Part shown: one piece after another, positions 1 to 54,227 of the stretch | Layout: every line of letters starts with the position of its first letter | How positions within the stretch are numbered: the stretch's first letter is position 1 | From: Escherichia coli O127:H6 str. E2348/69 | Lineage (GTDB): Bacteria > Pseudomonadota > Gammaproteobacteria > Enterobacterales > Enterobacteriaceae | Direction: 5' to 3' (one strand) | NCBI RefSeq assembly: GCF_000026545.1 | Contig: NC_011601.1 | DNA: 64,000 nucleotides | Position numbers and translations under genes: made by a program | The notes under the pieces: model-generated | What the model saw: the letters and a program-made list of their open reading frames with translations, nothing else | What the model was told of the DNA's origin: nothing | Database searches by the model: none

Positions 1-2079
1 CGCTTTATCCAGCGAACGGAACAGATCTTTATAATCGATAATATAGCCATACTCTTTATCCTCACCGTCCAGCCGGTTCACCCGACAAATCGCCTGAAAC
101 AGCGTATGGTCGGTCATGGTTTTATCAATGTAGAGATAGGTGGCGGACGGCGCGTCAAAGCCAGTCAGCAGCTTATCCACCACGATAAGCAGGCGCATTT
201 GCCCCGGCTCTTCAATAAAACGCTGTTTCACTTCCCGCTCGAACTCGGTAATGCGTGCGGCGGCCTTCTCTTCACTTTGTTCAAAATAGTCAGCCAACAT
301 TTTACGATAGGTGGCGTGTTTAGAGAGTTTCTCCGTTAACCCTTCGCCTGTTTCTTCGCCTTTGATGCTGGCGGCATCGGGGCGATAGCTGGTCACAATC
401 GCTACTTTTCCTGCCAGCTCGGTCTGGCTGAACATCTCGTAAACCTTGCAGGCTTGATAGATACTGCTGCATACCAGCATGGCGTTGCCGCGCCCGTCCA
501 TCAGGCGTGGACGGGTATCCATATCCAACAAAATGTCGTTAACGATCTGCTCCAGCCGCGACTTGCTGGAGAGCAGCTTCTGCATTGATCCCCACTTTTG
601 CTTAAGCTGGGTCCTAGCTAAATTCGACAAGCCGCGAGTCTTGGCTTCAAACCAGTCATCGACCTTTTTCTCTGATGTCAGATACTGGTCAATATCGCGC
701 GCCTCATAGCGCAGATCCAGCACCACACCGTCGGCCACCGCTTCATCAAATTTATAGGTATGGATATAAGGGCCGAACACCTCAACCGACTTCTTCTTAT
801 CTTTCTTCATCAGCGGTGTGCCGGTAAAACCGATAAACAGGGCATCCGGCAGAATGGCAGTCATGGCGTTATGCAGCTTGCCGGATTGTGTGCGGTGGCA
901 CTCATCCACAAAAACAAACAGATCGCCTTTGGCGCAGAATGTTTTCGTCAGGGACTGCTGTAATTCGGTGATAAAGGCGTCGGTAGCCGCATTGTCTTCA
1001 GCTTCGCTGCGACGACCAAATTTATGCACCAGCGAGCAAATAAGCCACGGGTTAGGATGATTGAGCGTTGCGATAAGATCGTTGCCGCTGGAGGTGCGAT
1101 AAATATCTTCATTCACGCCCATAAACACGCTTTCGATCTGTTCATCCAGTTCGGTGCGGTCAGTCACAATCAACACGCGGGAGTTTGGCACATTTTCACG
1201 GATCCACTTCGCCAGCCAGACCATCGTCAGGCTTTTACCCGATCCCTGTGTGTGCCAGATAATACCGCCTTCACGACGGGCAATATGTTGTTTAGCCGCC
1301 TCGACGCCGAAGAACTGATTATGGCGGCAGAGTTTTTTCACCCCGACATCAAAGGCAATGTAATTATGGACGATATCCAACAGCCTGGATTTGCTACACA
1401 GACGACTTAAATGAAAGTCGAGTTTATGTGTATAGTCGCCAGGATTATCTTCTTTCCACTCCAGATAGTATTTTTCCGGGGTTTCGATGGTGCCGTAGCG
1501 CAGGCCCTGCGTATCGTTGCCTGCCATCACTAACTGCATAGTGGTGAAGAAATCGCGGATAAAGGTTTTCTTTTGATTATCGAGATTCTGCCGGATGCCT
1601 TCGCTGACGTGTACTGACGAACGCTTAAGTTCAATCACGCCCAGCGCAATGCCGTTAACGTACAGCACCAGATCCGGGCGCTTGCAGTACTCGCCTTTGA
1701 CCGTCACCTCATCAGCGATGGCGAAATCATTGGCTTGTGGGTTGGCCCAGTCAATCAGCCACACGGTTTGGTTCTGCTCGCCTGCGCCTTCTTTGTCTTT
1801 CACGCCGTAACGCAGCAGGCGATAGACCTCTTTATTGGCGTAATAGAGTTTTTTGCCTTCGCCCAGAGCGGCGGCGGAATCCAGTTGCCGCAACGCCCGG
1901 GTGATCAACGTATCATTAACGCCGCGCCGTTTTAGCCACGCGCTCAGTATATTAGTGTCGATGTTGCTGTTCCCGGTGTACCCGGTGCGGTGACTCAGAT
2001 GGCGGTAACCTAAATCTTCAACAAAAAACTGAATCAGACGCTGCTGTGTGGCGCGTTCGCGCTGGCCCACGGTACTCAA
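1..2079 (-). CDS. hsdR: Type I restriction enzyme R subunit (HsdR), partial; C-terminus runs off the left window edge
   Basis: Reverse-complement translation from ~2079 gives a continuous frame with helicase motifs (WHTQGSGKSLTMVWLA Walker A, FVFVDECHRTQ DEAH-like, GFTGTPL). AAGGAG lies 6 nt upstream of a TTG at 2079; alternative GTG at 2070. Not in ORF track because incomplete. Confidence 0.88.
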   Translation of the reverse strand, partial: MSTVGQRERATQQRLIQFFVEDLGYRHLSHRTGYTGNSNIDTNILSAWLKRRGVNDTLITRALRQLDSAAALGEGKKLYYANKEVYRLLRYGVKDKEGAGEQNQTVWLIDWANPQANDFAIADEVTVKGEYCKRPDLVLYVNGIALGVIELKRSSVHVSEGIRQNLDNQKKTFIRDFFTTMQLVMAGNDTQGLRYGTIETPEKYYLEWKEDNPGDYTHKLDFHLSRLCSKSRLLDIVHNYIAFDVGVKKLCRHNQFFGVEAAKQHIARREGGIIWHTQGSGKSLTMVWLAKWIRENVPNSRVLIVTDRTELDEQIESVFMGVNEDIYRTSSGNDLIATLNHPNPWLICSLVHKFGRRSEAEDNAATDAFITELQQSLTKTFCAKGDLFVFVDECHRTQSGKLHNAMTAILPDALFIGFTGTPLMKKDKKKSVEVFGPYIHTYKFDEAVADGVVLDLRYEARDIDQYLTSEKKVDDWFEAKTRGLSNLARTQLKQKWGSMQKLLSSKSRLEQIVNDILLDMDTRPRLMDGRGNAMLVCSSIYQACKVYEMFSQTELAGKVAIVTSYRPDAASIKGEETGEGLTEKLSKHATYRKMLADYFEQSEEKAAARITEFEREVKQRFIEEPGQMRLLIVVDKLLTGFDAPSATYLYIDKTMTDHTLFQAICRVNRLDGEDKEYGYIIDYKDLFRSLDKA

Positions 2080-2097
2080 AAGGCGCTCCTTAAACCC

Positions 2098-3177
2098 TCA
2101 GCAATGGAACTCCATTACGCGGTTAATGGCAAATTGCAGATTATTATTATCAAACAGCCTCAACTTACGGCTGGCCCAGCGTTCGCCCGCAGGCCACTGG
2201 TGCAGCCCTTCCTTAACGGAGTCCAGCGTTGGTTGACATTCGCCACGGCTCAGCAACCAGTCTACGGTTGCCAGCAACTCCAGACCAAACGGCGATTCAA
2301 AGCCGTCAATTAACTGGCTGACCTGCTCCAGCGCAGGTAGCCACTCTCTGGCTTCGTTGTTCAGATACGCATTAACGTGTTCTTTTTTCTGATCGTTAAA
2401 CCAGATCACATCCAGCGGTTGGCTGTCCGGGATGCGTTTCTCGGCTTTAAGATAGGTGCCGTCCAGCGCATTAAGCAGATGGTTCAGATTGGGCGCATAG
2501 GGGCCATAATAGTGAGCTTCAAACCGCAGTTTGAGGATATCGTCCTGTTGATGCTGCTCAATGGCGCGTTGTAACAGCCAGGCCAGTTTCTGGATTTCCA
2601 GTAGGCTGCACTCCATCCCCAATACCCAGTAGCGACGCACCAGTTCAGCGATGGCGGCTCTGGCGGGAGTGAGCTTTTTTACGCCAGTGCTTTTGGCAAC
2701 GTTCTGGTATTTTTCAGTCGGTTGGTAAATCAGGATATCAACGTCCTGAAGGTCGCCAAGGGCAGATTCAATCTGCGCCCGAACGTCCGGCCAGTTCAAA
2801 CCACCGTTGCCTGCGCCCAGTGGTGGAATGGCGATGGACTGCACGTTCTCTTCAATCAAAAAGCGGCGTAAGTCCTGCAAGCCATCTTCAATCCACTCCA
2901 TGCGGGAATCAGCGCGCCAGTGCTGTTTGGTCGGAAAATTAACAATCCAGCGCGGTCCCATCAGTTCCCCGGTTTCGGTAATGAACATTTTGCCGGTGAT
3001 CACCTGCTTTTGTTTGCAGGCGAGGGCATAGACTTTCATATTTTCGGGGAAGCGCTCTTTAAACATCAACGCGATGCCTTTCCCCATGACACCGACGGTA
3101 TTAACCGTATTCACCAGAGCTTCCACCGGTGCGTCCAGTAAATTGCCTTGTGTATATGTGATCATGAGAAGTACCAT
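2098..3177 (-). CDS. darG: DarG antitoxin (N-terminal macrodomain, ADP-ribosyl-DNA glycohydrolase)
   Basis: 359-aa ORF; macrodomain signature near N-terminus ([26 protein letters not shown]). Alternative ATG at 3165 gives a 4-nt ATGA overlap with the darT stop. Confidence 0.85.
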
Positions 3178-3818
3178 CCAGACCGTGTGTGAACGGACAT
3201 TGTTAGATTACGCTGAAACAGCCATTGTTCTAATTGTAACCTGACCTCTTCGCTGTAACAAATTATCCCATCCAGCAGAGAGATCGGGCAGTGTTGCCAG
3301 ATTAGCGCCTCTGCCTGATAGCGTTCAAATTTAGCCGGATCGTCTGGATCGCGGCGAAAGTCCCGTGCCTGCAAAATGGGCCAGTCGATCTGGTCCAGAC
3401 TATTCAGACTGGTGTAGTAGTTGGTCCAGTTATAGTAAGCATGGCTGTCGGTAAACACGAAGGGCACGTCGTGTGCTGCCACGTTCCGCAAGTTGCTGAC
3501 CAGAATAACGATCTCCTCATTGGGGCGTCGCTTAATGCCGCCGCGCCCGCTGTGGATGTTCATCAGCATTGGCGAGAAGGGGGTAAAATAAAACGGCACA
3601 TAGTCATGCAGTGTCCCGCCCGTTCCGACAGGTACCGGATGCCCGGCACGCTTGCCGATCAGCTCCGGGTTGCCGATATTGATCCAGTTTTCCGCCTGCA
3701 CCAGACTGTTGCCGCAGTGCAGCCCGTTATCCAGAATCCACGGGATATTGTCCCGATGGACGATACGCCAGATCAGGGCTTTTTGCGGGTTGAGGCTGGC
3801 GCTGTAGTCATAGGCCAT
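3162..3818 (-). CDS. darT: DarT toxin (DUF4433 ssDNA thymidine ADP-ribosyltransferase)
   Basis: 218-aa ORF immediately upstream of and overlapping the macrodomain gene; size and sequence as recalled for enteropathogenic E. coli DarT; ATG at 3816-3818. Confidence 0.82.
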
Positions 3819-3829
3819 AGGTTTCCCTT

Positions 3830-5191
3830 CTATATTAAGCGGGTTTTCCCGGTTAACAACTCCTGCATCATCCCCTGTTTAAGCTGACGGGTTTTGTCCA
3901 GACGCTGTTGCAGGGTCTGAATTTCCTTGTCCATATCGGAGAGGATGGTGGCGATGGCGGTTTGTTCTTCTTTTGGCGGAAATGCAAGATGTAATTTCCT
4001 GATAATAGTAAGATTCAACCCACCACGCCCCCCATCACCAGTAGATAAACTTCTCAGTTCCTCATAACGACTGTCGAGGTTATAGAACAGGAATTCTGTG
4101 GAATGATGTTTGCTGGGGAAAATCGCAGCAATAGACTGATTAGTACATAATTCAATGCGATTAATTGCTACAGTCCCTCGAGTCTTTCCTTGTCCTGCCA
4201 ATCCGACTAATACAGAATTTTTAGGCACATACTTTGTACTGGAGTTAACAAGCCCTTCGTCGGTTATATAATCGGCTACAGCATACACCTGTTTTAGGTG
4301 TAATTCGCCGGAACTCATCCAAGGATGAGTTCCTCCCCAATATGCTGAAATTTTAGTACTCGGAGTTCCACCAGCACAGCAGTCAGTAAATTGTCCAATG
4401 CTTGTGACTACCCAATCTTCAGGAATCGCCCCCAACTCGCTCTTTTTATATCCCTTAGCAGAGCCATCTTTGCGCAACGCAAACTGTGGCAAACGGGTTT
4501 TACCAGTCAGTAGTTGCTGCATTGTGGCAGTTTTGATGGACTGTTTTTTTGAGAGTAATTTTTCTAGGGATAGAATCAAGCTATCAACATTGGTTAATAC
4601 ATTAGCAATAGCCTTTTGCTCTACGATATTTTTCGGTATAGATATGCATAACTTCTCTAAAACTGAACGTTTAATCCCTTGGGCCGTTGAACCAGTCGCG
4701 CTTTCAGAAATATATGATTGAAAACGCTCTGATAATAAGATTTGGAGTATTAGTGATGGAGAAAAATTCTCTCTATCTATTTGTAAAAGAATTGTTCTCT
4801 GGCTAAGAATATATTTTTTGTTATCAGGAATAGATGCTGCATTCCCCAGAGGGGCTTCCATTGTGAAAGCTATGTCCCCTTTTTGGGGATGACCGGATGT
4901 CATCCAGCGCTTATATAGTTCTTCGGAACCAAAGTAACATTCAGTAGATAAATCTATATATCCTTTTTTAACATTAGCAGCAGAAAGGGCAACGATATCC
5001 CCATCCCCCCAATCCATTCCAAGTTTTTTGGGAGTTCTGCCGCGATAATCAATTATGTTGGTTGTCAGGTTTAATATCGTGGATACAACCCAATCCTCAG
5101 GAATCATCTCCATCTCAGTCAGCTTATACCCCGCAGGCACACCTTTCCCCACCGTACCCGACCGTTGCTCATTCAGCATTAAATCCACCAT
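3830..5191 (-). CDS. hsdS: Type I R-M specificity subunit (HsdS), two target-recognition domains
   Basis: ~453-aa ORF with the conserved LTGKTRL repeat after each TRD; ATG at 5189-5191 overlaps the hsdM stop by 1 nt (track start 5197 is an alternative GTG). Confidence 0.88.
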   Translation of the reverse strand: MVDLMLNEQRSGTVGKGVPAGYKLTEMEMIPEDWVVSTILNLTTNIIDYRGRTPKKLGMDWGDGDIVALSAANVKKGYIDLSTECYFGSEELYKRWMTSGHPQKGDIAFTMEAPLGNAASIPDNKKYILSQRTILLQIDRENFSPSLILQILLSERFQSYISESATGSTAQGIKRSVLEKLCISIPKNIVEQKAIANVLTNVDSLILSLEKLLSKKQSIKTATMQQLLTGKTRLPQFALRKDGSAKGYKKSELGAIPEDWVVTSIGQFTDCCAGGTPSTKISAYWGGTHPWMSSGELHLKQVYAVADYITDEGLVNSSTKYVPKNSVLVGLAGQGKTRGTVAINRIELCTNQSIAAIFPSKHHSTEFLFYNLDSRYEELRSLSTGDGGRGGLNLTIIRKLHLAFPPKEEQTAIATILSDMDKEIQTLQQRLDKTRQLKQGMMQELLTGKTRLI

Positions 5192-7629
5192 CACCACTCC
5201 AGCCCCATCGCCCGCAAATGCCCGGCCACTTTCTCGCTCAACGCCTCAACGGCGGCTGCAAGTGCTGGCAACGGTTCAGCATAACGCTCTTCCAGCTCCT
5301 TTACGCGCGACGCCAGTTGCTGGGTAATACGCTCTATCTCCGCTTTGATCCCTGCCTGCAATGTTGCCAGCCACTTATCCTGCACTACCAGCGTTTTAAT
5401 CGCTGCTTCATCCAGCGTGGGATAATGTTTAAATACCGCTCGATCCAACGCTTTCTGTGCGGCTTTTAGCGCTTTTTTCGCACTGGCCTCGGCCTTAATC
5501 AGCGCCAGACAGCGGTTCAGCACTGCCAGCTCATCCGGGTCGGCAGGGGTTTTCTTCAACTGTGCCAGACGGGCATTCACCAGCTTTTGCGTCACCTTAT
5601 CTTTATCGTTTTTCGCCTCAGCCAGCAGATCCTCTTCCCCTGCCTGCTCCTCGATGAATTCCACTAGCTGACGACTGGCTTCTTCACTACGCTCCTGCGC
5701 GCGGTTCAGCGCATCCAGCAGTTCCGGGAAACAGCGAATTTCCACCAGCGAACGGGGCAGCACATCGGCCTTGTAGCGCCGTTTGGTAAACTCGAAATCG
5801 TGCGTTTCTTTCCAGATGTTTTTGCCATCTTTGCCTTTCACCGGCTGAAGCTCGCGGATTTGCGCGGCGGCTTGCCAGCCATCCTGCATAATCACATACA
5901 CATCGTCCTGCATGACATCAGCCCAGTAATCCATCAGGATCTGGTACACGCTGTATTTGTTCAGCAACTCACTGTTGGCGTACTGCGCCAATAGCATTTC
6001 GCTGATATCGTGGATTAGCGCTTTGGGTTTATCTCCTTTGCGGATCTCTTCCAGACCTGCCTCTTTTACCCACGACTTAAACGGTAGCAGGCTGCGGGTG
6101 GCAAAATCCTTAAACTCCTGATGAGCCAGAATGGTCGGTTTCACCTGCTGAGCGTCCACTTGCGCCCGGCAGTAACCGGGGTGGTCGTCAGCAAACAGCA
6201 CATTACGCAGGGCAGGGAATACCCGCCAATAATCCTTCAAAGCATCTACATCGCGCACTGGAATACCGCCTTGTAAGTGCGCGGTCAGATCGTGCAAATC
6301 TTCCGGCTCTCCACTCTCGATATAACGAGGAATATTCAGGTTGTAATCATTCCCGGCGATCTCGCTGGAGGGCACCATCCGGCTGTAGCCTGGCACCGTT
6401 CGCTGATGGTTGAACACGTCCACAATACGGTGAATATCTTGGCTACGCAGGCGGTTCTTGTTGCCATCTTTGATAAAGCCCCGACTGGCGTCGATCATAA
6501 AAATGCCTTTGCGGCTGTGGGCGTGCTCTTTATCAATCACAATGATGCACGCCGGGATGCCGGTGCCGTAAAACAGGTTGGCTGGCAAACCAATAACGCC
6601 TTTGATATAGCCCTGCTTGATTAGGTTTTCACGGATATTCGCTTCGGCGTTACCGCGAAACAGTACGCCGTGGGGCAGGATTACCGCGCCTTTGCCGGTA
6701 CTTTTCAGGCTTTTAATGATATGCAACAAAAAAGCATAATCGCCGTTTTTTTCCGGCGGAATACCCCAGCCGAAGCGTTCAAACGGATCTTTTTTTGGCG
6801 TCAGCCCGTTGGTCCAGTTTTTATTGGAAAAAGGCGGGTTCGCCACGGCAAAATCGAAGGCTTTCAGTTTGCCGTTCGCCTCTTTCCACTGCGGATCGCT
6901 CAGCGTATTGCCCTGCCAGATTTTCGCGGTGGCATTGTTATGCAGAATCATGTTCATCCGCGCCAGCGCACTGGTAGCGTTATCCATCTCTTGGCCGAAA
7001 ATCGACAGTCCGCGCCGGGCTTCATCATTCACTTTCAACAGCAGCGAACCAGAGCCACAGGTTGGGTCATAAACCGTTGCATCTCGCGGCGTATCGGGAG
7101 TAATACCAATCACCTTCGCCAGAATACGTGACACCTCCGCCGGAGTGTAAAACTGTCCTTTACTCTTGCCGGATTCGGTTGCGAAGTGACGCATCAGATA
7201 TTCATAGGCATCGCCCAGCAGATCGTCGCCTTCGACCCGGTTGCTGGAGAGATCTAACCCTTCAAAGATACCGACAAGCTTGCTCAGGCGGTCAATCATT
7301 TCCTTGCCTTTGCCGAGTTTATCTTCGTCGTTAAAGTCGGCTTCGTCGATGACGCCCTTCAGGCCGTTCTCTTCCGCCAGCTTGTGGATGATTTTGTTGA
7401 TTTTATCGCCGATCTCTTTGTCATTTTTCAGCGCAACCATATCGTCAAAGCTGGCTCCTTTGGGTATCACGATCATCCCGTAAGGATCGCCTTTATACTT
7501 ATCGGAAACGTACTTCATAAACAGCAGGGTCAGTACATAGTCTTTGTACTGGCTGGCGTCCATCCCGCCACGCAGTTCGTCGCAGCTTGCCCACAGGGAA
7601 GAATAGAGTTCGGTTTTTTTGATAGCCAT
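5191..7629 (-). CDS. hsdM: Type I R-M N6-adenine DNA methyltransferase (HsdM), unusually long (812 aa) with a C-terminal coiled-coil extension
   Basis: HsdM-type N-terminus (ELYSSLWASCDELRGGMDASQYKDYVLTLLFMKYVSDKY), SAM-binding FYTP and catalytic NPPF motifs; ~280 aa alanine/lysine/glutamate-rich helical tail. Confidence 0.88.
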   Translation of the reverse strand: MAIKKTELYSSLWASCDELRGGMDASQYKDYVLTLLFMKYVSDKYKGDPYGMIVIPKGASFDDMVALKNDKEIGDKINKIIHKLAEENGLKGVIDEADFNDEDKLGKGKEMIDRLSKLVGIFEGLDLSSNRVEGDDLLGDAYEYLMRHFATESGKSKGQFYTPAEVSRILAKVIGITPDTPRDATVYDPTCGSGSLLLKVNDEARRGLSIFGQEMDNATSALARMNMILHNNATAKIWQGNTLSDPQWKEANGKLKAFDFAVANPPFSNKNWTNGLTPKKDPFERFGWGIPPEKNGDYAFLLHIIKSLKSTGKGAVILPHGVLFRGNAEANIRENLIKQGYIKGVIGLPANLFYGTGIPACIIVIDKEHAHSRKGIFMIDASRGFIKDGNKNRLRSQDIHRIVDVFNHQRTVPGYSRMVPSSEIAGNDYNLNIPRYIESGEPEDLHDLTAHLQGGIPVRDVDALKDYWRVFPALRNVLFADDHPGYCRAQVDAQQVKPTILAHQEFKDFATRSLLPFKSWVKEAGLEEIRKGDKPKALIHDISEMLLAQYANSELLNKYSVYQILMDYWADVMQDDVYVIMQDGWQAAAQIRELQPVKGKDGKNIWKETHDFEFTKRRYKADVLPRSLVEIRCFPELLDALNRAQERSEEASRQLVEFIEEQAGEEDLLAEAKNDKDKVTQKLVNARLAQLKKTPADPDELAVLNRCLALIKAEASAKKALKAAQKALDRAVFKHYPTLDEAAIKTLVVQDKWLATLQAGIKAEIERITQQLASRVKELEERYAEPLPALAAAVEALSEKVAGHLRAMGLEW

Positions 7630-19479: not shown

Positions 19480-21867
19480 ATGATGCACGAAAAGAACATC
19501 GCCCTGCTTTGTGATGAAGCCGACCGGCTTTTGCAACTGAATATCAATCTGCTCCGGCAAATGGTTGATGAGCCGGATGTGTTATCTGACAGTAAGAACG
19601 AAAACGGGCTGCTTTTTGATAAACGGAAAGCGCTGAAAAGAATTGAGGAGCTGGAGGGCGAACAAATCAAAACCGCCCGCAGGGAGATGGTGCTGGCTGT
19701 GGTCGGCACGATGAAGGCGGGCAAATCAACCACCATCAACGCCATTGTGGGGCAGGAAATTCTGCCCAACCGTAACCGCCCCATGACCTCGGTACCGACA
19801 TTGATCCGCCACGTTCCCGGAAAAACGGAACCGGTCCTCCATCTGGAACATATTCAGCCCGTCCGCAATTTATTAATCACACTGCAGGAAAAACTCGCCA
19901 CCCCGGCAGGGCAGCAAGTCGCACAGTCCCTGCAGCAAACCGGGGATACCCGCGAACTACTGGATATTCTGGCGGATGATGTCTGGCTTAAAAATGAATA
20001 CCACGGGGAAGACGAAATCTTTACCGGACTGGCATCGTTAAATGACCTGGTTCGTCTTGCTGCGGCAATGGGGACTGAATTTCCTTTTGACGAATACGCA
20101 GAAGTGCAGAAACTACCGGTGATCGACGTGGCGTTCAGCCACCTGGTGGGAATGGATGCATGTCAGGGAACACTCACACTGCTGGATACCCCCGGCCCTA
20201 ATGAAGCCGGACAACCACAGATGGAAATGATGATGCGGGATCAACTACAGAAAGCCTCTGCGGTGCTGGCGGTGATGGATTACACCCAGATGAACTCGAA
20301 AGCCGATGAGGAGGTTCGTAAAGAGCTTAATGCCATTGCTGACGTCTCAGCCGGTCGTCTGTTTGTGCTGGTCAATAAATTCGATGAAAAAGATCGCAAT
20401 GGTGATGGTGCGGATGCCGTACGCCAGAAGGTGCCAGCAATGCTGAACAGCGATGTGCTGCCCGCCTCCCGCGTTTATCCCGGCTCATCACGTCAGGCGT
20501 ACCTTGCTAACCGTGCGCTTCATGAGTTACGAAAAAACGGTGCGCTTCCGGTTGATGAAGCCTGGGTCGATGATTTTATCAGGGAAGCTTTCGGACCTAT
20601 GGTGGAAGAGGACGACTGGAAAGACAGCACTAAGGTAAATAAAAAGGCAGAAAAACTCTGGAATATATCTCTGATCGATCAACTGATAACGGAAGTCATA
20701 CAGAGCTCCCATTCCAGAGCGGCGGCACTGGCGGTTGACTCTGCCGCCGCAAAACTGATGCAGAATGCAGAAAATATCAGCGAATATCTGTCATTACGTC
20801 ATCAGGGGCTGCAGCAAAGCATTCAGTCACTACAGGCGCATATTACCAGCCTGCTGGCGGATATCCAGGAGATTGAGGAATGTCAGAATCAGGTGACCGG
20901 TGATGTCAGAATGGCCATGGAGGACATCAATACCAAAACCGGGGAATTACTGACGAAGGTCTGTGCCTCACTGGAGGAGGAGCTGAACGACTATTTCAGA
21001 AGCGGTAAACGCAAAGAACAGCAAATGCTGGAGGAAGAAAATTCAGCGCAGCCCCGGGAGAGAAACGCATTCGCTTTCTTTCACGATATTTTCGGAACCG
21101 GAAATCAGCATGACAGGATGCGGGACTTTGATCCGGACAGCCCCGAAATAAAATTCAGTGATCGCAGGGCAGCCCTTGAACTGATGACGCAAATCGAATC
21201 GACCGTGACCAGCCTGCACCGTGAGGCTGAAGCACAGTTCCGGCCTGAGCTGGAGAAAATCGTCAGCGGGATTGAAACAGGTTTTCGTGGCACGGCCCTG
21301 TACGCCACAGAAAACATTGCCGGTCGCATCAATGCCCGCCTGGAGGATGAGGGCTTTACCGTAAAAATCAGTTTTCCGGCAGTCAGCCAGTTACAGACCC
21401 GGCTCGCGGTAAAAATAAATCTGAGTGCGCTTATGGAGGAAAGAACGGAGACCGTCACCCGTCGCCGTCGGCAGAGTGGCGTATGGGGAACCGTTTGTCG
21501 ATGGTTTGGCACCAGTGACCTGGGCTGGGAAAACTATGACGAGGATGTGAGTCGCAGCGTGATCAATATCAACAAGGTCAGAGAGGAAGTTATGTCACTG
21601 ACCCGGGCATATTTCGGGGAGCTGCAGGCATCCATTGAGCAGGATATTAACCAGCCCGTCCGCCAGGAAATCGATGCCTTTTTCTGCGCATTCAGGGAGA
21701 AAGTTGAACAACTGCGTAACACGCTGATTCAGAGCTCTGAAGATCATAAACGCGATCAGCAGGCGCAGGAACGGCTTACCGGGCGACTTCAGGCATTAAA
21801 TGAAAGGGTTCCTGAGCTCATTACTGACAGTAAGGCGCTGAGGGAAGAGCTGGAGACAATGCTGTGA
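19480..21867 (+). CDS. Dynamin-like GTPase, CrfC/YjdA-like (795 aa)
   Basis: G1 GTMKAGKST (nt 19705-19731), G3 DTPGPNE, G4 NKFD; long helical C-terminal region; resembles recalled E. coli CrfC (YjdA) N-terminus. Confidence 0.85.
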   Translation: MMHEKNIALLCDEADRLLQLNINLLRQMVDEPDVLSDSKNENGLLFDKRKALKRIEELEGEQIKTARREMVLAVVGTMKAGKSTTINAIVGQEILPNRNRPMTSVPTLIRHVPGKTEPVLHLEHIQPVRNLLITLQEKLATPAGQQVAQSLQQTGDTRELLDILADDVWLKNEYHGEDEIFTGLASLNDLVRLAAAMGTEFPFDEYAEVQKLPVIDVAFSHLVGMDACQGTLTLLDTPGPNEAGQPQMEMMMRDQLQKASAVLAVMDYTQMNSKADEEVRKELNAIADVSAGRLFVLVNKFDEKDRNGDGADAVRQKVPAMLNSDVLPASRVYPGSSRQAYLANRALHELRKNGALPVDEAWVDDFIREAFGPMVEEDDWKDSTKVNKKAEKLWNISLIDQLITEVIQSSHSRAAALAVDSAAAKLMQNAENISEYLSLRHQGLQQSIQSLQAHITSLLADIQEIEECQNQVTGDVRMAMEDINTKTGELLTKVCASLEEELNDYFRSGKRKEQQMLEEENSAQPRERNAFAFFHDIFGTGNQHDRMRDFDPDSPEIKFSDRRAALELMTQIESTVTSLHREAEAQFRPELEKIVSGIETGFRGTALYATENIAGRINARLEDEGFTVKISFPAVSQLQTRLAVKINLSALMEERTETVTRRRRQSGVWGTVCRWFGTSDLGWENYDEDVSRSVININKVREEVMSLTRAYFGELQASIEQDINQPVRQEIDAFFCAFREKVEQLRNTLIQSSEDHKRDQQAQERLTGRLQALNERVPELITDSKALREELETML

Positions 21868-22769
21868 CTTCACCATTTATTCAACAAATTGCTGATAACC
21901 GGGTATGTCAGGTACTCACCTGTCTTCCTGAAAAATTTGTGGTTGATTTCGCAAACGGAATCGATGTTGCACAGGAGCATATCCGCACGGCCGGAGAGCG
22001 CACGTTCTTCCGGCGTTTAAAAGAGGGGCTGACCGGCGAAGGCGCTGCACGGCAGAATGCCATCAATGCGTCGCTTGCACAGGGCGTTGAGGCGTCCCTG
22101 CGCTGGCTGACGGAGATGACAACGTCACTTGCCACCACAAACTACGCGATTACCCGGGTAAACGACAGGGTCAGTTCACTGGTCAGTGATACAGCCAGGC
22201 TGGCGCATTATTCCGCAGATACGCGGGAGCAGTTACTCACCCTGGCCGATCAGGTTCACCATAAACTGAATCATCTTGAAGAAAAACTCCACCGTGTTGA
22301 CCAGGTTCAGCGGGCGCAGTTACATCTTGAGCAGATATTCTCATGGTGGAGCGCCGGGCGATATGCGTCATTTTCCCCTGCCGGACGTTGTTATGTGGCA
22401 CTTGAAGAGCTTCGCTGGGGCGCGTTTGGTGATGTGATACGTCAGGGCGAAACAGGCCAGGTTAACCAGCTACTGGATATTCTCAGACATAAAGCATTAA
22501 CGCAGATGGCACAGGAGAGTGGCGGTAGTGCAACCGTGCGTCTGAACACTCTGGACTGGCTTGGTGGTCAGGGCCGGGAGCAGGCAGATAACGAGTGGCA
22601 TGACGCGATTAACTGGCTGGGAGACTGGTGCAGTGAAGAGCAGCATCCGGTGATCTGGTCAACCACGCAGGCTGCAGAACACTTACCGGTTCGCATGCCT
22701 CGCCTCTGCTCTGCAGAACGCCTCTCTGAAAGTATGGTCGATGAAATATTTCAGAAGGGGGCTGCATGA
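21864..22769 (+). CDS. Hypothetical protein (301 aa), YjcZ-like partner of the dynamin GTPase
   Basis: Start overlaps the dynamin stop by 4 nt; no nucleotide-binding motif; size and position match YjcZ next to yjdA in K-12 (sequence similarity to YjcZ not verified). Confidence 0.6.
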   Translation: MTSPFIQQIADNRVCQVLTCLPEKFVVDFANGIDVAQEHIRTAGERTFFRRLKEGLTGEGAARQNAINASLAQGVEASLRWLTEMTTSLATTNYAITRVNDRVSSLVSDTARLAHYSADTREQLLTLADQVHHKLNHLEEKLHRVDQVQRAQLHLEQIFSWWSAGRYASFSPAGRCYVALEELRWGAFGDVIRQGETGQVNQLLDILRHKALTQMAQESGGSATVRLNTLDWLGGQGREQADNEWHDAINWLGDWCSEEQHPVIWSTTQAAEHLPVRMPRLCSAERLSESMVDEIFQKGAA

Positions 22770-23836
22770 GTACAGAAATGAAAACGGGGCTGGTGCTGTC
22801 CGGTGGCGGGGCGGTGGGCGCTTATCAGGCGGGAGTGGTTAAGGCACTGGCAGAGTGTGGTACACAGATCAGCATGGTTTCAGGGACCAGCATTGGCGCA
22901 TTCAATGGTGCCATTATCGCGGCCTCTCCCGATCTGTCAGAAGCTGCCGTACGCCTGGAGGCGCTCTGGGAGCATCTGGGGAATAATCAGGTGCTGTCGG
23001 TAAACAGATTGGTTTACTTTTCATTGCTGAAAAAATTGTTCCAGGCAATGAACCTCTGCCAGATCCCCGGACGTGCAGGAGCACTGCTTACGACGCTTCT
23101 TCGCCATATATCGACAATCAACGGGTTTGACAATCTGATGGCTCAGCCGTTGTTGTCAGATGAGCCCCTGACAGCGCTGATGGATCATTATCTTGATACT
23201 GATGCTCTGGCAGACGGGCTACCGCTGTATGTGTCGCTGTACCCCACAGAAGGGGGCATGCAGGATATTATTGACTGCATTCGTGCTGAACTGGGTGTCG
23301 GAACCACGAAAAACGCCGTTTTTCAGCATATCCAGAGCCTGCCCCGCGGACAGCAGAAAGAGGCTCTGCTTGCGTCAGCCGCGCTGCCCCTGCTGTTCCG
23401 TCCCCGTGAGGTTCAGGGGACAATGTTCGGTGATGGTGGTATGGGAGGATGGCGAAATATGCAGGGAAATACCCCTGTGACGCCTCTGGTCGATACCGGA
23501 TGCAATATGGTGATTGTGACGCATCTGAGTGACGGTTTTTTATGGGATCGCAAGGCTTTTCCGGACACCACAATCCTTGAGATCCGTCCCCGGAAAAGGC
23601 TGAAATATGCAGGTGATGGTGGCAACAGCGGCGGTCTGCTCAGTTTTACATCGGCACATACCGACGCCTGGCGTCAGCAGGGCTATGAAGACACGATGCT
23701 GGCGATGGAGCATATCCGGAAACCGCTGGCAGCACGTCAGGCACTGACCCGGTCAGAGGCGGTATTGCAGAAAAGCCTGGATATAACGGAAGAGGCAGAT
23801 TTGGCACTGAGAAACGCGATGGCCCGGATTAAATAA
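22766..23836 (+). CDS. Patatin-like phospholipase (356 aa)
   Basis: Oxyanion-hole GGGxxG (LSGGGAVGAYQAG), nucleophile elbow GxSxG (GTSIG, nt 22883-22897) and catalytic-Asp DGG (FGDGG) motifs; start overlaps the previous stop by 4 nt. Confidence 0.85.
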   Translation: MSTEMKTGLVLSGGGAVGAYQAGVVKALAECGTQISMVSGTSIGAFNGAIIAASPDLSEAAVRLEALWEHLGNNQVLSVNRLVYFSLLKKLFQAMNLCQIPGRAGALLTTLLRHISTINGFDNLMAQPLLSDEPLTALMDHYLDTDALADGLPLYVSLYPTEGGMQDIIDCIRAELGVGTTKNAVFQHIQSLPRGQQKEALLASAALPLLFRPREVQGTMFGDGGMGGWRNMQGNTPVTPLVDTGCNMVIVTHLSDGFLWDRKAFPDTTILEIRPRKRLKYAGDGGNSGGLLSFTSAHTDAWRQQGYEDTMLAMEHIRKPLAARQALTRSEAVLQKSLDITEEADLALRNAMARIK

Positions 23837-27304: not shown

Positions 27305-27792
27305 TGAAACTGGCCCTGACACTGGAAGCCGACAGCGTTAACGTACAGGCACTGAACATGGGGCGCATTGTCGTTGACGTCGATGGTATTGAGCTCGCTG
27401 AACTGATTAACATGGTCTGCGATAACGGCTACTCCCTTCGTGTTGTTGATGAATCTGACCAGACCTCAGCAGAATGCACGCCACCATTTGCTACCCTTAC
27501 CGGCATACGCTGCAGTACCGCACATATCACGGAAACGGACAACGCCTGGTTGTACTCGCTGTCACACCAGACCAGTGACTTCGGTGAATCAGAATGGATT
27601 CATTTTACAGGTAGCGGATATCTGTTACGTACCGATGCGTGGTCATACCCGGTTCTGCGGCTTAAACGCCTGGGGCTGTCAAAAACGTTCCGTCGTCTGG
27701 TCGTCACACTCATCCGGCGTTATGGCGTCAGTCTCATTCATCTGGATGCCAGCGCTGAATGCCTGCCGGGTTTACCCACTTTCGACTGGTAA
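27301..27792 (+). CDS. YeeW-like protein
   Basis: 163-aa ORF overlapping the cbtA stop, in the position of yeeW in CP4-44. Confidence 0.6.
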
Positions 27793-27803
27793 CCAGGAAC
27801 AAC

Positions 27804-28001
27804 ATGAAATCATTAACCACGGAAACAGCGCTGGATATTCTGATTGCGTGGCTGCAGGACAATATCGACTGCGGATCGGGAATTATCTTTGACAACGATG
27901 AGGATAAAACGGATTCAGCAGCACTGTTGCCCTGTATCGAACAGGCCCGGGAGGATGTCCGTACCCTGCGTCATCTGCAGCTTCTGCACCAGAACCGGTG
28001 A
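27804..28001 (+). CDS. Small hypothetical protein (YpjJ-like)
   Basis: 65 aa from MKSLTTETALDILIAWLQDN... Confidence 0.5.
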   Translation: MKSLTTETALDILIAWLQDNIDCGSGIIFDNDEDKTDSAALLPCIEQAREDVRTLRHLQLLHQNR

Positions 28002-28085
28002 AGCTCACTCACCAGGCTTCATTCCTCTGACGCCAGCCTGCACAGGGCTGGCGTTTTCATTTATCTGCAAAAAGGAATATCGATT

Positions 28086-28928
28086 ATGTCAGATATCACA
28101 ATCTCCCGTCCGGAAGTGGTCAACGGGCATACGGACGTTATCTGCTCAACCAGCATTCGCCACATTCTGGCTGTACGAAAGAGTACACTGTTGCAAATCG
28201 ACACACTTATCCGACAACTGGCTGAAATCTCGGTGCTGACGGAAAGCATCGGAGGTAAAACTGCCCCGGACTGGGCCATGAAACAGGATTTTCGCTGCGG
28301 CTGCTGGCTGATGGAGAAACCCGAAACAGCAATGAAAGCCATTACCCGGAATCTTGATCGCGAAATCTGGCGTGACCTGATGCAACGTTCCGGGATGCTG
28401 TCATTAATGGATACGCAGGCCCGTGATACATGGTACCGGTCACTGGAGTACGATAATTTTCCGGAAATCAGCGAAGCGAACATTCTGAGCACATTTGAAC
28501 AACTGCACCAGAATAAGGATGAGGTGTTTGAGCGAGGGGTGATCAACGTCTTCAGAGGGCTGAACTGGAATTACAAAACCAATTGCCCCTGTAAATTTGG
28601 CAGTAAAATTATCGTCAACAATCTGGTGAGATGGGACCGGTGGGGATTTCATCTTATCACCGGACAACAGGCTGACCGACTCGCCGATCTGGAAAGAATG
28701 TTGCACCTGTTCAGCGGTAAACCAATCCCCGACAACCGGGGAAACATCACCCTTCGTCTGGATGATCACATTCAGTCTGTTCAGGGTAAAGAGAGCTATG
28801 AAGATGAGATGTTCAGCATCAGATACTTTAAGAAGGGCTCCGCGCATATCACGTTCAGAAAGCCAGAACTGGTTGACAGACTGAATGATATTATCGCAAA
28901 ACACTATCCTGATATGCTGGCAGTATAG
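28086..28928 (+). CDS. Hypothetical protein, 280 aa (possibly DUF4942 family), last island gene before serX
   Basis: Clean ORF with ribosome-binding site; family assignment is from memory and unverified. Confidence 0.5.
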   Translation: MSDITISRPEVVNGHTDVICSTSIRHILAVRKSTLLQIDTLIRQLAEISVLTESIGGKTAPDWAMKQDFRCGCWLMEKPETAMKAITRNLDREIWRDLMQRSGMLSLMDTQARDTWYRSLEYDNFPEISEANILSTFEQLHQNKDEVFERGVINVFRGLNWNYKTNCPCKFGSKIIVNNLVRWDRWGFHLITGQQADRLADLERMLHLFSGKPIPDNRGNITLRLDDHIQSVQGKESYEDEMFSIRYFKKGSAHITFRKPELVDRLNDIIAKHYPDMLAV

Positions 28929-29029
28929 CTTTGCCAGTATGCTCAAAGATCGGAAATTGTCCGATAAGATATGATCGCGGGGCATATAAACCGGTTTCAG
29001 ATGGCATACCCGATGGCATACTGTCTGGA

Positions 29030-29070
29030 AGGAAAAATAAAAAAGCGCATGTTAAACAATAACATGCGCT
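29030..29070 (-). terminator. serX rho-independent terminator
   Basis: Perfect 10-bp inverted repeat AGCGCATGTT/AACATGCGCT followed on the minus strand by a T-run, just 3' of the tRNA. Confidence 0.75.
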
Positions 29071-29077
29071 TATAATC

Positions 29078-29165
29078 TGGCGGTGAGGGGGGGATTCGAA
29101 CCCCCGATACGTTGCCGTATACACACTTTCCAGGCGTGCTCCTTCAGCCACTCGGACACCTCACC
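29078..29165 (-). tRNA. serX: tRNA-Ser (anticodon GGA)
   Basis: Reverse complement reads GGTGAGGTGTCCGAGTGGCTGAAGGAGCACGCCTGGAAAGTGTGTATACGGCAACGTATCGGGGGTTCGAATCCCCCCCTCACCGCCA; next to ghrA as in K-12. Confidence 0.9.
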
Positions 29166-29346
29166 AAATTGTCGTTCCTGTCTTGCTGGAACGGGCGCTA
29201 ATTTAGGGAAATCATGACCTGAGGTCAACAAACTTTTTTAAAAAATCGCTCGATTATTCAAACTTCAAGCAATATGCAGTTTTAATAAGCGAAATTTGCT
29301 TTTTTTGCCACCGACCACGGATTTGTTATGCTGGTGGCCTTTGTAG

Positions 29347-30336
<990 letters not shown>

Positions 30337-30390
30337 TAAAGCATCTGGTTTCCTGCTATCCTTGGCGGGAATTGAATACAGGAGAGAGTT

Positions 30391-31128
30391 ATGTATCCCG
30401 TCGACCTTCATATGCATACCGTTGCCAGCACGCATGCATATAGCACATTGAGTGATTACATTGCCCAGGCCAAACAAAAGGGCATTAAACTTTTTGCGAT
30501 CACCGATCATGGCCCGGATATGGAAGATGCGCCGCATCACTGGCACTTCATTAACATGCGTATCTGGCCGCGAGTGGTTGATGGGGTAGGGATCCTGCGC
30601 GGCATCGAAGCTAACATTAAAAATGTTGATGGTGAAATTGACTGCAGCGGCAAAATGTTTGATTCGCTGGATCTGATTATTGCCGGTTTTCATGAGCCGG
30701 TTTTTGCGCCACATGACAAAGCGACCAATACAAAAGCGATGATCGCCACTATCGCCAGCGGCAATGTTCATATAATAAGTCATCCCGGAAATCCACGGTA
30801 TCCAATTGATTTTAAAGCTGTTTCTGAAGCTGCAGTGAAACATCAGGTGGCGCTGGAAATCAATAATTCCTCATTTTTACACTCACGTAAGGGCAGTGAA
30901 GACAACTGTCGTGCGGTAGCCGCAGCGGTACGTGACGCTGGAGGTTGGGTGGCATTAGGCTCGGATTCTCACACTGCGTTTACCATGGGGGAATTTGAAG
31001 AGTGTCTTAAAATCCTCGACGCGGTAGATTTTCCGCCAGAGCGCATTTTGAATGTTTCTCCGCGCCGCTTACTTAACTTCCTTGAATCTCGCGGTATGGC
31101 ACCGATTGCGGAATTTGCAGACCTTTAA
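30391..31128 (+). CDS. ycdX: PHP-domain phosphatase YcdX
   Basis: 245 aa, [18 protein letters not shown]... Confidence 0.93.
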
Positions 31129-34708: not shown

Positions 34709-35461
34709 GATGAAACCCCACTTTTTTTATTGATCGCACACCTGACAGCTGCCTCTAAAATAGAAGCACCAGAAGTACTGACAGATGTTGCACTGCTGTG
34801 TGTAGTAATAAATCAGCCCTAAATGGGTAAAATATAAAACTAATGGATTACATCTGATTTCAATCTAGCCATTACAAATCTTAAATCAAGTGTTAAACAT
34901 GTAACTAAATGTAACTCGTTATATTAAAATGTTAACCTTAAGGTTTTATTAAGTTTAGAAATGATAGAAAAGTTGTACATTTGGTTTTTATTGCACAATT
35001 TTAAAAAATCATACAAATGGTGCTAACTTACTAATAATGCATATAAAAAATATTTCGCTGTAGTCCTTTCGTCATGTAAAACGTTCTTGTTTTTTCTCCA
35101 TACCACCGTGGACAATTTTTTACTGCAAAAAGACGAGGTTTGTCACGGCTTGTGCGCAAGACATATCGCAGCAATCAGCGACGGGCAAGAAGAATGACTG
35201 TCTGGTGATTTTTGATAGCGGAAAACGGAGATTTAAAAGAAAACAAAATATTTTTTGCGTAGATAACAGCGTATTTACGTGGGTTTTAATACTTTGGTAT
35301 GAACAAAAAAAGAAAAATACAACGCGCGGGTGAGTTATTAAAAATATTTCCGCAGACATACTTTCCATCGTAACGCAGCGTTGACAAAATACAGGTTGCG
35401 TTAACAACCAAGTTGAAATGATTTAATTTCTTAAATGTACGACCAGGTCCAGGGTGACAAC
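34709..35461. promoter_or_regulatory. csgD-csgB divergent intergenic regulatory region
   Basis: ~750-bp AT-rich spacer between divergent csgDEFG and csgBAC operons; known to carry both promoters and multiple regulator binding sites. Confidence 0.8.
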
Positions 35462-44927: not shown

Positions 44928-45026
44928 GCCTGATGCGCTACGCTTATCAGGCCTACATCGCTCCTGCAATGTGTTGATTTTGCAAGATTTTGTAGGTCGG
45001 ATAAGGCGTTCACACCACATCTGGCA
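44928..45026. repeat. REP (repetitive extragenic palindromic) elements
   Basis: GCCTGATGCGCTACGCTTATCAGGCCTACA and TGTAGGTCGGATAAGGCGTTCAC... units downstream of opgH. Confidence 0.7.
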
Positions 45027-54122: not shown

Positions 54123-54227
54123 TAATCTCTATGCTCCGGCTGAAGGGATGTTTTTGCCGGACACAAAGGATAAGCGGAAACGTTTTCCTTTGCACGAAAA
54201 ATAAAGGGCGCGAATGCGCCCTCGTGA

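Follow-up and report, generated by a model that had tools for sequence, protein, structure and literature searches.

The junction between accessory DNA and serX in Escherichia coli O127:H6 str. E2348/69 is almost certainly the tRNA-proximal att junction of IE2, a 61-kb integrative element of the SRL-PAI/OI-43/48/SpLE1 group. The boundaries, the repeats, the identity of the integrase, the empty site, and the origin of the terminator were demonstrated, and no result contradicted the structural reading. The window, which is the whole 64,000-nt stretch of DNA that was analysed, corresponds to positions 1152001-1216000 of NZ_LT827011.1 (hereafter the record). The 40-kb segment directly left of the window (L002) was examined together with it, and locus L001 is identical to window positions 1-34000. 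The features used are listed below, in window coordinates unless L002 is named.

1-29077: right-hand 29 kb of island IE2, the remaining 31.8 kb lying past the left window edge
CP4-like module (RefSeq annotation): DUF932, antirestriction, yeeS, yeeT, yeeU/cbtA, DUF5983, DUF957, and DUF4942 genes
28086-28928, + strand: DUF4942 protein gene, the last island gene and the end of the CP4-like module (Pfam DUF4942, E = 8.7e-69)
28929-29077: arm of the tRNA-proximal att junction on the island side, corresponding to one of the two reconstructed attP arms
28957-28966, + strand: TTGTCCGATA, candidate accessory-factor site, also present in L002, where it lies between repeat and integrase gene
29001-29009 and 29013-29021, + strand: two direct ATGGCATAC repeats with a 12-bp period, candidate integrase arm-type sites
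29033-29071, - strand: predicted island-borne intrinsic terminator, now ending serX transcription (terminator scan, fold)
29078-29091: 14-bp att core and direct repeat TGGCGGTGAGGGGG, the last 14 nt of serX, with the second copy at L002 8152-8165
29078-29165, - strand: serX, intact tRNA-Ser(GGA) with encoded CCA (ARAGORN; Rfam tRNA, 53.8 bits; identical to K-12 serX)
29398-30336, + strand: ghrA, the first core gene right of the junction (RefSeq, K-12 alignment)
L002 8326-9543: intact tyrosine integrase gene, 405 aa (Arm-DNA-bind_3, Phage_int_M, and Phage_integrase domains)

In the proposed mechanism, the P4-family tyrosine integrase, whose gene is at the far end, would have recombined the 14-bp attP core of the circular island with the last 14 nt of serX, an integration that would leave serX intact. 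All sequence downstream of the tRNA would thereby have been replaced by island DNA, with an island hairpin 6 nt past the CCA end now ending serX, and the ancestral serX terminator with a 14-nt ser'X stub would have been displaced by 61 kb, to the integrase gene. The 149-bp spacer between the DUF4942 gene and the tRNA would then be one attP arm with paired ATGGCATAC, the matching pair being on the other arm, upstream of the integrase.

Iguchi et al. 2009 is said to have defined IE2 and to be the source of its nomenclature. The island was found here to be about 61 kb long, to lie at about 1.12-1.18 Mb, and to carry genes for a TcdA/TcdB-type glycosyltransferase (lifA-like) and NleE as well as nleB* and EspL* genes. 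The published IE2 has 61.2 kb at 1121572..1182762 and contains lifA-like, nleE2, nleB*, and espL* (PMC2813277); lifA/efa1-like, nleE2, and nleB and espL pseudogenes have also been given as its content (PMC5685641). Judged by its sequence, the accessory DNA left of serX is thus the published island, and the finding is already known. As a published island of a well-characterised family, it holds no surprise for a specialist. The two repeats are 60,912 bp apart (record 1120166-1181077), with the 14-bp core on each side, and the value of the analysis is mainly in annotation, in giving these boundaries to the base.

The integrase end and a possible capacity for excision

The first-pass annotation had reported neither an integrase nor a repeat of the tRNA 3' end in the window, and the searches agree. 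Using the integrase of IE2 itself as a tblastn query, no integrase was found in the window (best E 0.41), and the RefSeq annotation of the window lists IS transposases only and no integrase. A second copy of the serX 3' end was likewise absent from the window in searches with a 25-mer and a 19-mer (up to 3 mismatches) and with the 14-mer (up to 2 mismatches). One additional 14-mer match, at 12685, was rejected in view of its position within the gene of an IS66-family transposase and because a match with 2 mismatches is no better than chance.

The same annotation had placed the other boundary left of hsdR, outside the window, and had proposed a repeat search over 1-29000 and upstream; this search located the boundary where it was expected, with nothing inside the window and an exact 14-bp copy to its left. 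The exact 14-mer TGGCGGTGAGGGGG occurs once in L002 (8152-8165, equal to record 1120152-1120165) and once in the window, in the same orientation, and no copy beyond these two boundary copies was present in the 104 kb examined. From the left copy to window base 1, the distance is 31,836 bp. It was found with the exact 14-mer and missed in L002 by the 25-mer and the 19-mer (up to 3 mismatches), because similarity is confined to the 14 nt of the repeat and is lost entirely outside it. The DNA that precedes the integrase gene consists, in order, of a K-12-type serX terminator, TGGCGGTGAGGGGG, and unrelated sequence. The integrase gene adjoins the repeat and starts 160 bp into the island from it, and the N-terminal domain of the product matches solved arm-binding domains of CP4-like integrases. 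The integrase gene, the 14-bp repeat, and an AlpA-family gene (L002 11214-11501) all lie 29-32 kb left of the window.

Joining of the two island ends through the core gave a reconstructed attP of 323 bp. The second ATGGCATAC pair is at L002 8284-8304, again with a 12-bp period, 22 bp upstream of the integrase start codon, so that attP holds four direct ATGGCATAC copies in total, two per arm. Any 9-mer present at least three times was obtained in only 3 of 5000 shuffles of the 323-bp attP. Because the integrase has an Arm-DNA-bind_3 domain, the ATGGCATAC repeats are read as candidate arm-type sites of this enzyme. TTGTCCGATA is present in two direct copies in attP, one per arm, and might be an accessory-factor site. 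In four diverged copies of the arm, the nine variable columns all lie outside TGGCATAC, TTGTCCGATA, and the hairpin, a comparison of low power in which the motifs were defined post hoc.

SRL-PAI has a recombination directionality factor, Rox. Turner et al. 2004 reportedly deals with the SRL attP. Precise excision of SRL-PAI requires its own integrase (PMC7545054), and site-specific excision per cell has been put at 1.8e-3 for OI-43 and 2e-4 for OI-48 (PMC3064760). By analogy with OI-43/48 and SRL-PAI, IE2 may still be able to excise. A tentative combined proposal, which we place somewhat short of even likelihood, is that the (A/G)TGGCATAC pairs would be undescribed arm-type integrase sites of the SRL/OI-48/IE2 attP, that the upstream pair would serve integrase autoregulation, and that IE2 would be excision-competent. 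An excision-competent IE2 could shed or pass on its lifA-like effector, type I RM system, and DarTG together, as one unit.

Among the alternatives, the one that survives best is that IE2 was first integrated site-specifically but reached E2348/69, or persists there, as a fixed segment, through homologous recombination with its flanks and with no excision. Window positions 27500-30500 are 100% identical in three EPEC O127:H6 E2348/69 assemblies, the junction being kept in 3/3, and this constancy, together with the many IS elements and pseudogenes of the interior and the occurrence of the junction in 25% of the complete genomes, a frequency compatible with vertical or homologous-recombination spread, speaks for such a history. 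We nevertheless regard it as rather unlikely, since IE2 retains an intact integrase, two intact repeats, and two intact attP arms, with 98% identity to their counterparts in OI-48, an island with an excision rate of 2e-4 per cell. Far less probable is loss of the integration machinery with the other boundary decayed or undefined, a fallback raised in the first-pass annotation; it would fit the lack of an integrase or repeat within the window and an interior heavy with IS elements and pseudogenes, but it fails on the intact 405-aa three-domain integrase, the perfect 14-bp repeat, and the AlpA-family gene found left of the window. Both repeats being present as well, IE2 is a structurally complete element and no decayed remnant.

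The serX side and its terminator

The tRNA-Ser(GGA) gene at 29078-29165 is the sole tRNA gene that ARAGORN finds in the window. The earlier description of a complete serX, a hairpin terminator, and then ghrA was borne out by ARAGORN, Rfam, the terminator scan, and RefSeq. It had called this arrangement "as in K-12" and had suggested a comparison with the K-12 ycdU-serX region, and that comparison located the junction: K-12 is near-identical from ghrA through serX, and the identity breaks off at the 3' end of the tRNA. The likeness to K-12 therefore holds on the ghrA side only and not beyond the tRNA 3' end. Left of 29078, neither K-12 nor the empty-site strains showed homology. In the genome-wide search, genomes that lack the island align only from query position 142 or 150, equal to window position 29070 or 29078. 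The accessory genes had been said to begin about 150 bp from the tRNA, which is right for the coding sequence, as the DUF4942 stop at 28928 is 149 bp from the tRNA 3' end, and not for the island DNA, which starts at the tRNA 3' end itself. Base composition has no step at the junction; since it is silent there, the case for the boundary rests on comparison.

The hairpin at 29043-29071 (- strand) has a 12-bp stem with 5 G-C pairs and begins 6 nt past the CCA end. It is followed by a U-tract at 29033-29042 (the hairpin, then TTTTATTTTT, with the tail given as UUUUAUUUUU) and folds at -17.6 kcal/mol, with z = -8.0 against dinucleotide shuffles. A GC-containing hairpin with a U-tract just past the 3' end of the transcript corresponds to a predicted intrinsic (Rho-independent) terminator. 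The hairpin is unchanged in four diverged island copies. The ancestral serX terminator is GAGCUCGUACGAAAGUACGAGCUUUUUUU (-21.2 kcal/mol), which is carried by K-12 and by the empty-site strains; in E2348/69 it lies at the integrase end of the island, where it adjoins the 14-nt ser'X stub. Since the hairpin differs from the terminator of K-12 and the empty-site strains, and since homology ends at the tRNA, the terminator is island-borne; as far as sequence comparison goes, the hairpin at 29033-29071 is island DNA and not the K-12 serX terminator. The first-pass annotation had taken it for the own terminator of serX, and this does not hold, as the K-12, empty-site, and junction alignments place the ancestral one at the integrase end, with the present one supplied by the island. 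That the hairpin is nonetheless ancestral, with an island that starts about 150 bp away and an insertion outside the tRNA gene, would suit its position where a tRNA terminator is expected and the end of the first island coding sequence 149 bp from the tRNA, but is highly improbable, as the K-12 and empty-site terminator differs from the one here, the alignment stops at the tRNA 3' end, the true ancestral terminator is at the integrase-side junction, and the three-way alignment of attB with the left and right junctions refutes it.

Of 5426 complete E. coli genomes, 1355 (25%) have the 149-bp arm joined directly to tRNA-Ser(GGA), at serX as well as serW sites. In about one-quarter of complete E. 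coli genomes, tRNA-Ser(GGA) would thus be ended by the island hairpin instead of the ancestral terminator. Strain DA33137 (locus 1497-1744) has the same arm, terminator, and 14-bp core at serW, beside infA, and from this copy it follows that the island family uses the 3' ends of both tRNA-Ser(GGA) genes, serX and serW, which are identical to each other.

An Rfam scan of the left junction gave sub-threshold matches only; the match to MicC (36 bits against a gathering score of 90) is driven by the terminator hairpin and was set aside as chance. In the core genome right of serX, Rfam matches to the ES056 sRNA (34764-34855), the ES036 (CssrF) sRNA (44949-44991), and the PyrC leader (54123-54172) all exceed their gathering scores and are unrelated to the island junction.

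The empty site

The attB site was reconstructed from the left flank through the 14-mer and the right flank (1601 bp). It was found uninterrupted in other E. coli genomes, with 100% coverage in one piece and 99.4% identity, and 416 genomes cover at least 80% of it. In the three-way alignment, attB consists of the left half of the left junction and the right half of the right junction, and the overlap is the 14-bp core. As the empty site is uninterrupted elsewhere, both IE2 boundaries are fixed to the base.

The gene order at the empty site of FHI_NMBU_03 is phoH, DUF2726, serX, ghrA. Outside the island, past its integrase end, L002 likewise has a DUF2726 gene and then phoH. In this region (L002 6812-8151), E2348/69 and its empty-site relatives (e.g., FHI_NMBU_03) are without pgaABCD, dgcT, and ycdU between phoH and serX; one DUF2726 gene replaces these K-12 genes, a difference that is independent of IE2.

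In the ycdU-serX spacer of K-12 (L003 14023-14565), three extra copies of the 19-nt serX 3' end are present downstream of serX at 181-bp spacing. These copies include the 14-bp att core and lie in RtT-like tandem repeats, two units of which reach the Rfam RtT gathering score, so that the att core is present four times in tandem in K-12. Because of these copies, a partial serX repeat at this locus is not in itself proof of an island boundary, and it is the empty-site comparison that settles the boundary.

Island content and relation to known islands

Left of serX, the RefSeq annotation gives the CP4-like module, a set of three genes (dynamin/RdcB/patatin), a region rich in IS elements, and a type I RM operon interrupted by darTG. 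The island part of L002 contains IS debris, espL*, nleB*, nleE, the lifA-like gene, DUF3987 and AlpA-family genes, and the tyrosine integrase gene, and the IE2 interior as a whole has many IS elements and pseudogenes. The DarT/DarG pair sits between hsdR and hsdS of the type I RM operon (window 1-7629, - strand; PADLOC, DarG 1.4e-127 and DarT 1.4e-74), and a gene for an M48 metallopeptidase is just upstream of hsdR, in L002. The dynamin-family, RdcB-family, and patatin-like phospholipase genes (window 19483-23836, + strand) have overlapping stop and start codons. With weak PADLOC matches (LeoBC, 1.6e-5; phospholipase effector, 6e-6), this block could be a putative defence or membrane-remodelling module. 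No PADLOC match was obtained for DUF4942 or DUF932. The IS-rich stretch (window 10899-19438) contains IS3, ISEc47 (IS66 family), and an IS30 copy split by another IS3-family element, as well as a frameshifted YeeP-like GTPase gene and a doubly truncated AIDA/Ag43-like gene; an Rfam IS102 RNA match at 17961-18197 is barely over threshold (47.6 against 46 bits). The lifA-like gene of IE2 contributes to attaching-and-effacing lesion formation (PMC5685641). IE2 also bears the DarTG/type I RM defence cluster. Any remaining capacity for excision would be of some, if modest, practical relevance to the stability of the strain.

[quoted passage not shown] 2011, PMC3064760). IE2 has the same perfect TGGCGGTGAGGGGG repeats, a P4-family integrase beside a ser'X stub, and a precise empty site, and by these sequence features it is a member of the SRL-PAI/OI-43/48/SpLE1 group of serX/serW islands with a different cargo. 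OI-48/SpLE1 shares its target, the serX 3' end (OI-43 is at serW), and its layout, which runs from the ancestral terminator, the cryptic ser'X, and the integrase to the CP4-like module, intact serX, and ghrA. The OI-48 integrase has 98% aa identity to that of IE2 (400 aa in O157 and 405 aa in IE2), only two bases distinguish the left junctions over the interval between terminator and integrase start, and the O157:H7 right end is 98.7% identical to window 27500-30500. These matches of integrase, left junction, and right end place IE2 in the OI-48 family. The cargo differs, OI-48 having ter, urease, and iha, and IE2 having the lifA-like gene, nleE2, nleB*, espL*, and a DarTG-containing type I RM system. 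As the upstream core gene, O157 has ycdU and E2348/69 has the DUF2726 gene.

SRL-PAI is also in serX with the same 14-bp repeats (PMC3064760). Its P4-family integrase gene is reported to be 99% identical at the nucleotide level to those of OI-43/48 and 15 bp longer, which, by the published description, fits the 405 aa of IE2. Its cargo of antibiotic resistance and fec genes is unlike that of IE2.

IE2 further resembles P4/CP4-type islands such as CP4-57 at ssrA and KpLE2 at leuX in its tyrosine integrase with an N-terminal arm-binding domain, in a tRNA 3'-end target that is regenerated on integration, in its AlpA-family regulator, and in the YeeU/CbtA toxin-antitoxin module at the integrase-distal end. 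That the toxin-antitoxin end faces the tRNA raised the idea of an island that is inverted or not at serX, which was rejected, as OI-48 has the same layout. In IE2, the integrase gene adjoins the cryptic tRNA stub and the toxin-antitoxin end adjoins the intact tRNA gene, whereas CP4-57 and KpLE2 have the opposite arrangement of these two ends.
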